Below are positions 12,561 through 41,925 of a stretch of DNA of 64,000 nt, in pieces. The stretch covers positions 24,988,001 to 25,052,000 of the forward strand of contig CM075987.1 of the NCBI GenBank assembly GCA_038087875.1, in the 5' to 3' direction. Source of the stretch: Malacoraja senta (taxonomy: Eukaryota). The notes under the pieces were generated by a model, which saw only the letters and a list, made by a program, of their open reading frames with translations, ran no database searches and was not told the origin of the DNA. The translations under genes were made by a program, and so were the position numbers. The first letter of the stretch is position 1, and each line of letters opens with the position of its first letter.

Positions 12561-13989
12561 CTGGTTAGCATGCCACAAAAGTTTTTCACCGTACCTCAGT
12601 ACATGTGACAATAAACTGAGCTGAACTGAATGAAAAAAAAGATTTAAACAGTGCGCATTCTTCCAAATCACAAGATGGCAACAAAGCCAAATTTAAAACA
12701 TGTGATTCCGCAATGTCACAGACCTTGCAGAAGAGACTCGGTATTTTACGGCTACACGCAGTCATTGATGTGTGTTTGTTGGCATCCAGAATAAACCAGC
12801 AATTAGTCTTGATAAACGAAACAATAAATATGTCAGAAAACAAGTAAGGTTATGCATGGCTACTGGTGTGCTGAGGATTTGTTAAACTGAAATATTACTG
12901 CCAGATGTACACCAATTGTGTCCACAGAACAAACTTGCCAAATGGATAATGTAAACACTGTTTCATCTCCATCAAATACAGAGCTGAAGTTTACGTCACT
13001 TGAGTTACTGTCTGTTCTGCATTTATGTCTGCAATATTCATGATTTAATATCTTCCATCTGGATGTTCCAGATGTGCATTCATGATAGTGATTCTCTTTT
13101 TTTACATGGCCGTTTTCTCATGGGCTTCTTCTGAAATGACTTCATATTTGACGGGACAGATCTGCTGGATCCTCGCAGGGCAAGCAAGCATTGGTTAAAG
13201 ATGCACCTGTGGAAATCTGCAATCTTCCCAACCAGACTCTGACCGAGGATGGAACAGGGTGATACGTGGGCGGATGGAAATAGAGATTTAAAAAAATATT
13301 CCCCCGAATACTTTGCAGGACGGCACGGCGGCAGAGTTGCTGCCGATTCGATGCCGACTACGGGTGCTGTCTGTACGGAGTTTGTACGTTCTCCCTGTGA
13401 CCTGCGTGGGTTTTCTCCGAGATCTTCGGTTCCCTCCCACACTCCAAAGACGTACAGGTTTGTAGGTTAATTGGCTCGGTGTAAATGTAAAGTGTGTGGA
13501 GATTAGTGTTAATATGCGGGTCGGCGGTGAATTAACCACCCAATTTGTGCCACCCATGCAGTAGAATTTCGGAACTGATTTTTAAATAGTCTCTCAGTTG
13601 GAACACTAGCATTGGATAGTCCGACATCCATTTCAGGCAAAGAGAAGATTGAGCCAATGCAACATCGTCAGATGAGGACAATATTCCTGTCATCAACATT
13701 CCTGGCCTCTTCCTGCCATCCCACCTGGACCCAACATCAAAATTCATTCATTACATTTGGCTGAGATCGTTGGATTCTATCACGATACAGTCCTACAATG
13801 GCGCAGCGGTAGAGTTGCTGCCTCACAGCGCCAGAGACCCAGGTTTGATCCAGACTATAGGTGCTGCCTGTACGGAATTTTTACGTTCTCCCCCTACATA
13901 TAGATACATAGAAAATAGGTGCAGGAGTAGGCCATTCGGCCCTTCGAGCCTGCACCGCCATTCAATATGATCATGGCTGATCATCCAAC

Positions 13990-16900
13990 TCAGTATCCCG
14001 TACCTGCCTTCTCTCCATACCCCCTGATCCCTTGAGCCACAAGGGCCACATCTAACTCCCTCTTAAATATAGCCAATGAACTGGCCTCAACTACCCTCTG
14101 TGGCAGAGAGTTCCAGAGATTCACCACTCTCTGTGTGAAAAAGTTTTTCCTCATCTCGGTCTTAAAGGATTTCCCCCTTATCCTTAAGCTGTGACCCCTT
14201 GTCCTGGACTTCCCCAACATCGGGAACAATCTTCCTGCATCTAGCCTGTCCAACCCCATAAGAATTTTGTACGTTTCTATAAGATCCCCTCTCAATCTCC
14301 TAAATTCTAGCGAGTATAAGCCAAGTCTATCCAGTCTTTCTTCATATGAAAGTCCTGACATCCCAGGAATCAGTCTGGTGAACCTTCTCTGCACTCCCTC
14401 TATGGCTATAATGTCCTTCCTCAGATTTGGAGACCAAAACTGTACGCAATACTCCAGGTGTGGTCTCACCAAGACCCTGTACAACTGCAGTAGAACCTCC
14501 CTGCTCCTATACTCAAATCCTCTTGCTATGAAGGCCAACATACCATTCGCTTTCTTCACTGCCTGCTGCACCTGCATGCCTACTTTCAATGACTGGTGTA
14601 CCATGACACCCAGGTCTCGCTGCACCTCCCCATTTCCTAATCGGCCACCATTTAGATAATAGTCTGCCTTCCCGTTTTTGCCACCAAAGTGGATAACCTC
14701 ACATTTATCCACATTATACTGCATCTGCCAAACATTTGCCCACTCACCCAGCCTATCCAAGTCACCTTGCAGCCTCCTAGCATCCTCCTCTCAGCTAACA
14801 CTGCCCCCCAGCTTAGTGTCATCCGCAAACTTGGAGATGTTGCTTTCAATTCCCTCGTCCAGATCATTAATATAAATTGTAAATAGCTGGGGTCCCAGCA
14901 CTGAGCCTTGCGGTACCCCACTAGTCACTGCCTGCCATTGTGAAAAGGACCCGTTTACTCCTACTCTTTGCTTCCTGTTTGCCAGCCAGTTCTCTATCCA
15001 CATCAATACTGAACCCCCAATACCGTGTGATTTAAGTTTGTATCCTAATCTCTTATGTGGGACCTTGTCGAAAGCCTTCTGAAAGTCCAGATACAACACA
15101 TCCACTGGTTCTCCCCTATCCACTCTACTAGTTACATCCTCGAAAAATTCTATAAGATTCGTCAGACACGATTTACCTTTCGTAAATCCATGCTGACTTT
15201 GTCCAATGATTTCACCACTTTCCAAATGTGCTGCTATCCCATCTTTAATAACTGACTCTAGCAGTTTCCCCACTACCGATGTTAGACTAACTGGTCTGTA
15301 ATTCCCCGTTTTCTCTCTCCCTCCCTTCTTAAAAAGTGGGGTTACGTTTGCTACCCTCCAATCCTCAGGAACTACTCCAGAATCTAAAGAATTTTGAAAA
15401 ATTATCACTAATGCATCCACTATTTCTGGAGCTACTTCCTTAAGTACTCTGGGATGCAGCCTATCTGGCCCTGGTGATTTATCGGCCTTTAATCCATTCA
15501 ATTTACCCAACACCACTTCCCGACTAACCTGGATTTCACTCAGTTCCTCCATCTCCTTTGACCCGCGGCCCCCTGCTATTTCCGGCAGATTATTTATGTC
15601 TTCCTTAGTGAAGACGGAACCAAAGTAGTTATTCAATTGGTCCGCCATATCCTTGTTCCCCATGATCAATTCACCTGTTTCTGACTGCAAGGGACCTACA
15701 TTTGTTTTAGCTAATCTCTTTCTCTTCACATATCTATAAAAACTTTTGCAGTCAGTTTTTATGTTCCCTGCCAGTTTCCTTTCATAATCTATTTTCCCTT
15801 TCCTAATTAAGCCCTTTGTCCTCCTCTGCTGGTCTCTGAATTTCTCCCAGTCCTCTTGTATGCTGCTTTTTCTGGCTAATTTGTACGCAACATCTTTTGC
15901 TTTGATACTATCCCTGATTTCCCTTGTTATCCACGGATGCACTACCTTCCCTGATTTATTCTTTTGCCAAACTGGGATGAACATTTTTTGTAGTTCATCC
16001 ATGCAGTCTTTAAATACCTTCCATTGCATATCCATCGTCAACCCTTTTAGAACTAATTGCCAGTCAATCTTGGCCAATTCACGTCTCATACCCTCAAAGT
16101 TACCTTTCTTTAAGTTCAGAACCGTTGTTTCTGAATTAACAATGTCACTCTCCATCCTAATGAAGAACTCAACCATATTATGGTCACTCTTGCCCAAGGG
16201 GGCACGCACAACAAGTCTGCTAACTAACCCTTCCTCATTACGCAATACCCAGTCTAGAATAGCCTGCTCTCTCGTTGGTTCCTCTACATGTTGGTTTAGA
16301 TAACTATCCCTCATACATTCCAAGAAATCCTCTTCCTCAGCACCCCTGCCAATTTGATTCACCCAATCTATATGTAGATTGAAGTCACCCATTATAACTG
16401 TTTTGCCTTTGTTGCACGCATTTCTAATTTCCTGTTTGATGCCATCCCCAACTTCACTACTACTGCTAGGTGGCCTGTACACAACACCCACCAGCGTTTT
16501 CTGCCCCTTAGTGTTTCGTAGCTCTACCCATACCGATTCCACATCCTCCAAGCTAATGTCCTTCCTTTCCACTGCGTTAATCTCCTCTCTAACCAGCAAC
16601 GCTACCCCACCTCCTTTTCCTTTCTCTCTATCCCTCCTGAATATTGAATATCCCTGGATGTTCAGCTCCCAGCCTTGGTCACCCTGGAGCCATGTCTCCG
16701 TGATCCCAACTATATCATAATCATTAATTGCTATCTGCACGTTCAACTCATCGACCTTATTACGAATGCTCCTTGCATTGAGACACAAAGCCTTCAGGCT
16801 TGTTTTTACAACGCTCTTACCCCTTATACAATTATGTTGGAAAGTGGCTCTTTTTGATTTTTGCCCTGGATTTGTCTGCCTGCCACTTTTACTTTTCACC

Positions 16901-17115
16901 TTGCTACCTATTGCTTCCGCCCGCATTTTGCACCCCTCTGTTTCTCTGCTCACCCATTTAAGAACCCCACCACCTCTTATTCTCTGTTTATTATTGTTTT
17001 CTTCTTTCCCCCCTACATGTTGGGTCTGAGTGCTTTCCTTCTCTGCCTCCTGCCTCACACACTGTCTAATAGCATTCTCTATTTGAGTCCCTCCCCCCAA
17101 CCATTCTAGTTTAAA
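13990..17115 (-). pseudogene. CR1 ORF2: APE endonuclease + reverse transcriptase, one premature stop
   Basis: Motifs LNARS, GITETW, MGDFN, SDH (endonuclease); [19 protein letters not shown] (RT); RPHLEYC and RTRGHS (C-terminus). ORFs 14791-17334 and 13990-14760 are in the same frame, separated only by TGA at 14791-14793 (GSVS*EEDARRL). Confidence 0.93.
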
Positions 17116-17272
17116 GTCTCCCCAGTAGCCTTTGCAGATCTCCCCGCCAGGATATCGGTCCCCCTCAGGTTCAAGTGCAACCCATCCTTTTTGTACAGGT
17201 CGAACCTTCCACAAAAGAGGTCCCAATGATCCAGAAATTTGAATCCCTGCCTTCTGCACCAGTCCTTCAGCC
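17106..17272 (-). CDS. CR1 ORF1 C-terminal fragment (SGNH esterase-like)
   Basis: [35 protein letters not shown]...ETLN*, with the DxxH (DGLH) motif typical of CR1 ORF1 esterase domains. Confidence 0.85.
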
Positions 17273-17892
17273 ACGTTCTCCCCGTGACCTGCGTGGGTTT
17301 TCTCCGGGTGCTCCGGTTTCCTCCCACACTCCAAAGACGTACAGGTTTGTAGCTTAATTGGCTCAATATAATTGTAAATTGTCCCTGGTGTGCAGGGCAG
17401 TGTTAGTGTGCAGCGTAGTGCAATTGTCCCTCGTGCGATAATGCTAATGTGCGGGTGATTGCTAGTCGGCGCAGACTCGGTGGGCCGAAGGGCCTGTTTC
17501 CACGCTGTATCTGAGCATTAAACCAAACTATCTCATGAATGGAGGGGACAGGTAAAAATCTTCGTGATGATAAATGAAACTGTGTCTTTCCTTTTATCAT
17601 ATCAGGCAAAGCAAGCTATTCTGTAGCTGACTCATTTATAATATACTTTTGATCCCCATTTCTCTCGGGAAGCCTCAGGATATGCAGCATTGATACATAG
17701 CCTCCTGCAGCAATTACATTTAATGTTTGCACATTAAAATACATTTCTAAGGTTGAACAAAATGTAGTAACTTCAAACTTAATTCTGTTCACCGAGGACA
17801 TTGCTTCCACCTCCTTGGATCAAATTAAATGCATTGATGTTATTGTTGAGCCAGTAGACAGGGCAATAGGTGGGAAGTGCCTGATCTTAGTG

Positions 17893-18197
17893 TTTAGTTT
17901 AGAGATACAGCGCGGAAACAGGCCCTTCAGCCCACCGAGTCCGCACAGACTAGCGATTCCCGCACACTAACACTACCCGACACACACCAGGGACAATTTA
18001 CAATTTTACCGAAGCCAATTAACCTACAAACCTGTTCCGCCTTTGGAGTGTGGGAGGAAACCGGAGAACCCGGAGAAAACCCACGCAGGTCACGGGGAGA
18101 ACGTACAAAATCCGTACACACAGCACCTGTAGTCAGGATTGAACCTGGATCTCTGGAGCTGTGAGGCAGCAACTCTACCACTGTGCCACCGTGCCAC
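17893..18197 (-). mobile_element. V-SINE
   Basis: Same consensus, full length. Confidence 0.9.
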
Positions 18198-35549: not shown

Positions 35550-35970
35550 CCTCTAGAATTTAGGAGATTGAGAGGGGATCTTATAGAAACGTACAAAATT
35601 TCCTATGGGGTTGGACAGGCTAGATGCAGGAAGATTGTTCCCGATGTTGGGGAAGTCCAGGACAAGGGGTCACAGCTTAAGGATAAGGGGGAAATCCTTT
35701 AAGACCGAGATGAGGAAAAACTTTTTCACACAAGAGAGTGGTGAATCTCTGGAACTCTCTGCCACAGAGGGTAGTTGAGGCCAGTTCATTGGCTATATTT
35801 AAGAGGGAGTTAGATGTGGCCCTTGTGGCTAAAGCGATCAGGGGGTATGGAGAGAAGGCAGGTACGGGATACTGAGTTGGATGATCAGCCATGATCATAT
35901 TGAATGGCGGTGCAGGCTCGAAGGGCCGAATGGCCTACTCCTGCACCTATTTTCTATGTATCTATGTATG
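35550..35970 (+). mobile_element. CR1 3' fragment, near-identical to the 3' end of the young CR1 at 13895-14310
   Basis: Sequence matches the reverse complement of 13895-14310 with few differences. Confidence 0.9.
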
Positions 35971-36027
35971 TAAGGTGATTGGTCATTGATCTGTTACTCT
36001 AACTCTGTTGTCCACTCTGCAAATTGA

Positions 36028-38191: not shown

Positions 38192-38490
38192 AGTTTAGTG
38201 TAGTTTAGAGGAACAGGCCCTTCAGCCGCCCGAGTCTGGGCCGACCAGCGATCCCCGCACATTAACACTATCCTACACACACTGGGGACAATTTATACTT
38301 ATACCAAGCCAATTAACCCACAAACCTGTACGTCTTTGGAGTGTGGGAGGAAGCCGAAGATCTAGGAGAAAACCCACGCGGGTCACGGGGAGAACGTTCA
38401 AACTCCGTACAGACGGCACCCAGAGTCGGGATCGAACCCGGGTCTCTGGCGCTGTAAGTCAGCAACTCCACCGCTGCGCCACCGTGCCGT
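38192..38490 (-). mobile_element. V-SINE
   Basis: Same consensus. Confidence 0.88.
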
Positions 38491-41518: not shown

Positions 41519-41925
41519 TTTAGTTTAGTTTAGCTTAGAGATACAGCGCGGAAACAGGCCCTTCAGCCCACCGCGTCCACGCCGACCAGCGATCCCTGCA
41601 CACTAACACCATCCTACCTACACACACTAGGGACAATCTACATTTATACCAAGCCAATTAAACTACGAATCTGTACGTCTTTGGAGTGTGGAAGGAAACC
41701 GGAGCACCCGGAGAAAACCCTCGCAGGTCAAGGGGAGAACGTACAAACTCCATACAGACAGTGCCCGTCGTCAGATAGACAAAAGTGCTGGAGAATCTCA
41801 GCGGGTGCAGCAGCATCTATGGAGTGAAGGAAATAGGCAACGTTTCGGGCCGACACCCTTCCTCAGCGTCAGGATGGAACCCGGGTCTCTGGCGCTGTGA
41901 GGCAGCAACTCTACCGCTGCCCCAC
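41519..41925 (-). mobile_element. V-SINE interrupted by a Penelope-end insert (~41775-41866, TSD cgtcag)
   Basis: SINE halves rejoin across the insert. Confidence 0.85.

Follow-up and report, generated by a model that had tools for sequence, protein, structure and literature searches.

How long interspersed nuclear elements (LINEs) translate their second open reading frame (ORF2) is a long-standing question that has so far been answered by re-initiation for L1 and SART1 (PMC2881922 and PMC5009743, parts available). In the available text of PMC2881922, re-initiation on both elements depends on translation of ORF1, and in that of PMC5009743 mammalian LINE ORF2 is treated as a case of unconventional initiation. 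Viruses and long terminal repeat (LTR) retroelements use programmed −1 ribosomal frameshifting, in which a heptamer phased X_XXY_YYZ, such as the U_UUA_AAC of infectious bronchitis virus (IBV) or G_GGA_AAC, lies between a structural protein upstream and a polymerase downstream in the −1 frame; these two heptamers are among the most shift-prone (PMC5009743, part available). Here, we describe the same arrangement in a CR1 LINE copy on the minus strand of a 64,000-nt stretch of the Malacoraja senta genome (GCA_038087875.1, contig CM075987.1, positions 24,988,001 to 25,052,000; the window). Its ORF1/ORF2 junction carries U_UUA_AAC, on which CR1 probably shifts to the −1 frame and so produces a fusion of the ORF1 esterase with the endonuclease and reverse transcriptase (RT) of ORF2. 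Unlike the viral sites, the CR1 site resides in a LINE, its stop codon adjoins the heptamer and its candidate stimulator is a G-rich tract, the searches for a pseudoknot or stable hairpin having found none above shuffles.

Among non-LTR elements with an apurinic/apyrimidinic endonuclease (APE), Dictyostelium TRE5-A and TRE3-A are stated in a figure legend of a review (PMC5911963) to depend on a −1 frameshift for their ORF2; they belong to another LINE clade and have another type of ORF1. The available parts of PMC5006619 and PMC4255032 add nothing on TRE frameshifting. The window element shares its esterase ORF1 and APE-RT ORF2 with canonical CR1 LINEs (PMC13343379) and the ZfL2-1 esterase (PDB 4C1B), and its RT groups with bird CR1. 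The term 'frameshift' has no match in PMC13343379, PMC2734521, PMC4120745 or PMC3905857, and we found no description of CR1 frameshifting in the literature covered; subscription papers fall mostly outside this scope, as do the 1997 papers on chicken and turtle CR1, so an earlier remark is possible. What we propose is therefore a known mechanism, −1 frameshifting, in a host, the CR1 LINE, where no description of it was found.

At the junction the minus strand reads gag acT TTA AAC TAG, and the ORF1 frame ends ATGETLN*. The heptamer (17109..17115, minus strand, as for all features of the element below) comprises the last two ORF1 codons, for Leu-Asn, and the wobble base before them, phased X_XXY_YYZ relative to ORF1. 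The ORF1 stop adjoins it (17106..17108); it is TAG here and TAG, TAA or TGA in relatives. The original prediction had placed a correctly phased TTTAAAC at the CR1 ORF1/ORF2 junction, and this holds (17115-17109, stop 17108-17106), as does its claim of an ORF2 in the −1 frame that is open for about 100 codons before the endonuclease. Counting from the heptamer, 110 codons (16786..17115) pass without a stop before the endonuclease motif CLNARS is reached, against 11 and 9 stops in the other two frames, and dinucleotide shuffles of this linker were stop-free in 3 of 3000 cases. An ORF2 start upstream of the heptamer was rejected: the DNA there belongs to a short interspersed nuclear element (SINE), the −1 frame has no Met in it, and a common variant at 17202 closes that frame.

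XXXYYYZ heptamers occur 449 times in the window, TTTAAAC itself 14 times, and one L2-type locus carries such a heptamer before its stop with no open frame behind it, which would suit a coincidence, in a single dead copy, of a random heptamer and a random open frame rich in purines. Of the 5757 stops counted over all six frames of the window, only 11 (0.19%) directly follow a phased XXXYYYZ, and the arrangement is conserved from chimaera to birds, with a second heptamer in a distant family. By these comparisons chance is largely refuted, and we regard it as extremely improbable.

The window copy is dead and cannot be active, being truncated at its 5′ end at 17273 and interrupted by a TGA in ORF2, and the evidence for the junction is therefore comparative; no second copy of the junction was found within the window. 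Term searches were made in Supplementary Table 2 of PMC13343379, of which a part was available; it apparently gives the first 400 letters of each consensus, and its consensuses lack some bases. TTTAAAC followed by TAG, TAA or TGA gave 12, 8 and 3 matches, and 18 of these 23 lie at CR1-type junctions (11 TAG, 6 TAA and 1 TGA) under 12 species codes. The codes presumably stand for alligator, crocodile, bearded dragon, bullfrog, coelacanth, bowfin, halosaur, chimaera, sawfish, stingray, catshark and dogfish. Terms lacking the heptamer returned 13 CR1-type rows that show the 3′ part of ORF1, two of them incompletely; TTTAAAC is present in all 11 visible ends and is directly followed by the stop in nine. 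Ten heptamer-variant terms, all with TAG, had no match at a CR1 ORF1 end in this part of the table, and within that search no synonymous change of the heptamer was seen. Across the vertebrate junctions compared, TTTAAAC is thus kept as the stop varies among TAG, TAA and TGA, a conservation at the nucleotide level beyond what the protein needs. The same table holds a consensus labelled Crack (AldAff_Crack-2) with an esterase-type ORF1 end and TTTAAAC-TAG, and two dogfish consensuses (SquAca_CR1-3 and -18) with TTTAAAC-TAG/TAA in 5′ regions upstream of ORF1. Contigs of three runs were also aligned on 16700-17273, with run X21 (4 reads) and RNA runs of small share excluded. No variant fell at 17106-17136 among 40 of the 68 variants, those listed, and no indel reached 8% anywhere in the aligned interval.

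A degenerate pattern placed about 400 nt upstream, without the heptamer, retrieved 19 metagenome loci. Nine reach an intact ORF1 end, two of CR1 type and seven of L2 type; the other ten are too short, decayed or phage. Both CR1-type loci (L017 and L023) end in G_GGA_AAC-TAG, a second slippery heptamer, and an amniote-type locus (L010) stops just short of the junction. The seven teleost L2-type loci end in TGA, their −1 frame closes within 5-19 codons and six of them have no heptamer. In three of the seven (L009, L012 and L022) start and stop overlap as AUGA, and the −1 frame opens for only 17-19 codons and ends well before ORF2; this overlap is possibly a re-initiation relay. Four matches (L002-L004 and L013) are fortuitous: the pattern met a single type of phage gene that has a long open stretch and no relation to CR1. 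Scans of viral contigs found no CR1, with one unrelated SGNH locus and chance matches only; those of prokaryote genomes gave 0 matches and later two contaminant-like LINE fragments: L024, which does not extend as far as the junction, and L025, whose upstream ORF encodes no esterase. LINE fragments occur in three prokaryotic records (L024, L025 and P0186; Aeromonas cavernicola, a Nitrosocosmicus metagenome-assembled genome and Carnobacterium), most likely as animal contamination.

An RT tree of 18 rows, midpoint-rooted, places the window element in an 11-row clade (95/97) with duck and stork CR1 proteins, L023 and P0194. Four teleost-type loci form a separate clade (100/100); we infer that they are L2, the tree containing no named L2 reference. 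With an APE endonuclease and RT in ORF2, an esterase-type ORF1 and an RT that groups with named CR1, the element has the features of a canonical CR1, except that the window copy is not intact and active. Skates and rays supply the closest named ORF1 homologs, and a full-length ORF1 relative (P0003) matches PDB 4C1B with an E-value of 1.5e-25. In our reading, the junction is the conserved ORF1/ORF2 boundary of esterase-type CR1 LINEs.

Sixteen of 17 close ORF1 homologs end in Leu-Asn (LN) and one in IN, with varied preceding residues (P0018, a frameshifted copy, was excluded). A profile search extended this to 165 ORF1 proteins, in 104 of which the C-terminus lies 18-45 aa beyond the DGxH motif; 60 of the 104 end in LN, 8 in GN and 75 in N. 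A snake, a turtle and a monitor lizard are among the named members with an LN end. LN closes the protein whether the tail after DGxH measures 25 (n = 1), 26 (45), 27 (3), 32 (8) or 39 (3) aa, and the residue before it takes 11 different values among the 60. Residues with no codon ending in U (K, E, Q, M and W) stand there in 1 of 60 proteins, compared with 87 of 540 (16%) at positions −4 to −12 (p = 3e-4), and in 1 of 40 when distinct ends are counted (p = 0.008), p-values that are overstated because the homologs are related. Before terminal GN the residue is Q in all eight cases (Gln-Gly-Asn). Further ends, known from protein only, are KN, EN, SN and FN (P0110, P0177-P0179, P0112, P0147, P0080, P0130 and P0141); a KN end would fit the heptamer A_AAA_AAC.

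Could the sequence be kept for some other reason, either a C-terminal Leu-Asn needed by ORF1p or an RNA or DNA motif for protein binding, RNA processing or RT pausing? The constant spacing of LN, 26 aa after DGxH in 45 of 60, could reflect helix packing, G-runs could bind proteins, and TTTAAAC with stop-like triplets recurs in the two dogfish 5′ regions in the available part of the table. LN nevertheless remains terminal when the tail length changes, and a demand on the protein would not explain why TTA, AAC and the T ahead of them are constant. With GN, encoded by GGGAAAC, the residue and the sequence both differ and the XXXYYYZ pattern is retained; L2-type esterases manage without the heptamer. 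We consider such a constraint very unlikely. The strongest points for frameshifting are the fixed codon choice, with a free stop codon and a free preceding residue, and the swap to G_GGA_AAC in a distant family.

The open −1 frame recurs in other lineages. In L023 it runs 70 codons into the endonuclease-RT region, where the other frames have 2 and 17 stops; upstream, it closes 16 codons before the heptamer, yet has a Met 3 codons before it. F-K-L, the −1 reading of TTT AAA CTA, is present in 7 of 7 wood-stork gene models, a stingray model (P0181) and the metagenomic P0194, at 95, 69 and 103 aa from the endonuclease, respectively. The −1 offset and open linker, both part of the original prediction, hold in the window copy and in each of these CR1-clade cases, which together are those with a frame readable from actual DNA or protein. 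By eye, the available ScyCan_CR1-1a consensus is open for 37 codons into the endonuclease. Among 12 longer matches no natural single-ORF fusion of ORF1 and ORF2 was found on a raw contig, the fusions being gene models, a result that is weak either way.

The principal alternative is that ORF2 is made separately, by termination-reinitiation or coupling at an AUG (16926, or UAAUG in some sharks), with the heptamer and open linker as a relic or pausing site. CR1 has in common with SART1 and L1 a bicistronic LINE RNA, and UAAUG, the SART1 coupling motif, at some shark junctions; ORF1-dependent re-initiation is the model for both elements (PMC2881922, part available). SART1 and L1 give a separate ORF2p, whereas at the TAG and TGA junctions of CR1 no AUG overlaps the stop, and the reading frame is already open at the heptamer. 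The first in-frame AUG in the window, in KMRAEA, lies at 16924..16926, 182 nt after the heptamer and 63 codons in, with a purine at −3, as in L023. Four out-of-frame AUGs come first in the window (17104, 17075, 17018 and 16957) and six in L023. The junction in the window has neither a UAAUG nor an AUGA overlap: its TAG is followed by a +1-frame AUG that opens only 12 codons. The original prediction had held that the Met of KMRAEA, as a conserved ORF2 start, would count against frameshifting, and its position turned out not to be fixed across families. Among 120 ORF2 homologs the Met before the endonuclease ranges widely, from the stop itself to 1-91 aa, and P0186, P0196 and P0208 have none in the 35-59 aa visible. 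Re-initiation also leaves the fixed codon choice and the G_GGA_AAC swap unexplained. The distance of 182 nt is the same in L023, with linkers of 110 and 70 codons; the equality is probably chance.

Several observations weigh against frameshifting, and some of them favour re-initiation. An in-frame AUG is present in nearly every linker, so that the downstream ORF, with AUG 16926 in the window and AUGs in most relatives, does not lack an independent start, a lack that frameshifting does not strictly require. All 7 stork models retain the AUG 13 aa ahead of the endonuclease, three shark-like families have one at −26, and by eye 3 of 6 TAA junctions, in the shark consensuses available, have UAAUG with the AUG in the ORF2 frame. 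Among the variants listed, 3 of 15 between the stop and the first AUG are synonymous in the −1 frame, compared with 9 of 12 below it, four of these inside the endonuclease, a synonymous bias found only below the AUG. None of these 27 variants creates a −1 stop and four create stops in other frames; with no more than 15 changes before the AUG, the absence of new stops there carries no weight. Ahead of the AUG the linker is open, yet its sequence shows no constraint, as expected of either a loose tether or a non-coding spacer. Between the heptamer and the first in-frame AUG, 60 codons contain no stop in the window and in L023, compared with 329 (1.6%) and 75 (0.4%) of 20000 shuffles, but a 60-codon stretch taken anywhere in the window has a 10% chance of lacking stops as well. 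Gene models, which are built as open frames, speak for openness at the family level only. The −1 frame is open from the site in the CR1-clade cases above, and three of four consensus linkers read by eye (AllMis_CR1-1b, SquAca_CR1-22 and PogVit_CR1-2, available parts, visibly lacking bases) hit a −1 stop and could not confirm it. Furthermore, 36 of the 104 ORF1 homologs end in neither LN nor GN, position −10 likewise has K, E, Q, M or W in 1 of 60, and the L2-type control L015 has a phased C_CCA_AAC at its ORF1 end with a closed −1 frame. Searches downstream of the site for H-type pseudoknots gave a best candidate no better than shuffles, and hairpin stimulators were not above shuffles either. 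On balance we consider separate synthesis of ORF2 unlikely as an account of the junction, and the two routes may coexist.

A candidate 3′ stimulator lies directly behind the site. The original prediction had noted a G-rich tract about 6 nt downstream and supposed a stimulatory structure there. The tract exists (17089..17102), beginning at 17102, 6 nt after the heptamer; the structure found no comparable backing, as folds of four downstream stretches have z-scores of −1.21, −0.74, −1.91 and +0.25, pseudoknots are at shuffle level and Rfam has no match at the junction. A two-tier G-quadruplex is predicted for the tract, whose G4Hunter score of 1.9 ranks within the top 0.06% when the element is scored in 20-nt windows; L023 (top 0.6%) and L017 (top 0.9%) also peak immediately behind the site. 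The quadruplex 6 nt after the heptamer is the minimum free energy fold, when allowed, in the window only. In the available consensuses a G-run lies within about 10 nt of the stop at most junctions, with the AldAff, AmiCal and SquAca-17a rows as exceptions. Quadruplexes can stimulate −1 shifting.

Under the frameshifting model, which we consider the most probable, most ribosomes would terminate at the stop that adjoins the heptamer, releasing ORF1p, while a minority would slip back one base, with tRNA-Leu and tRNA-Asn re-pairing in tandem on U_UUA_AAC. Slippage would be helped by a pause at the G-rich tract 6 nt on, at the adjacent stop, or at both. Shifted ribosomes would read through the loose linker into the endonuclease and RT, yielding an ORF1-ORF2 fusion. 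The original proposal of such a fusion in this CR1 lineage thus finds support at the level of sequence, and the checks made on it (heptamer variation, frame offset, linker stops and a conserved ORF2 AUG) came out mostly in its favour. There is, in our estimate, an even chance that all esterase-type CR1 LINEs, in jawed vertebrates and some non-vertebrate-type lineages, make a Gag-Pol-like fusion of ORF1, endonuclease and RT on U_UUA_AAC or G_GGA_AAC, with an RNA G-quadruplex and the adjoining stop codon as stimulators.

The CR1 copy spans approximately 17273-13894 and is inserted inside a SINE. Its ORF1 remnant (17106..17273) is the last 55 codons of an SGNH/GDSL esterase with a DGLH motif (PF13472, E-value 0.0012, below the cut-off). 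ORF2 encodes the APE endonuclease, RT and a C-terminal part (13990..16785; PF03372, PF14529 and PF00078) and is interrupted by the in-frame TGA at 14793-14791; the 3′ UTR and a short tandem tail (13894..13989) are common to many truncated copies in the window. An 11-bp target-site duplication, read from the ends, flanks the copy (5′ copy 17273..17283, 3′ copy 13893-13883). The DNA above 17273 is a SINE-like repeat (17274..17530, minus strand) with many copies in the window, and not CR1 ORF1. This corrects the earlier picture: no more than the last 55 codons of ORF1 are present, and neither the 98-aa 'ORF1' nor the opening ~80 aa of the 908-aa stop-to-stop ORF counts as CR1. The host repeat comprises 17274-17530 and 13883-13650, and other copies lie, for example, at 17962-18104, 38257-38397 and 41521-41742. 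A truncated CR1 3′ end at 35553-35978 is 97.9% identical over 426 nt to the 3′ end of the copy, an identity indicating that the CR1 family was active recently.

CR1 dominates the repeats of birds and reptiles. CR1-group elements make up 22-34% of shark and ray genomes (PMC13343379, part available). If CR1 is expressed by frameshifting, its RT would carry ORF1, a coiled coil and esterase, along with it, and the ratio of ORF1 to ORF2 would be fixed. The annotation of CR1 ORF2 starts would change, CR1 would be exposed to host factors that target frameshifting, and the difficulty of building active CR1 constructs may find an explanation. Were all esterase-type CR1 elements to share it, a retrovirus-style mode of expression would have persisted over hundreds of millions of years in an animal LINE clade that ranks among the most widespread.
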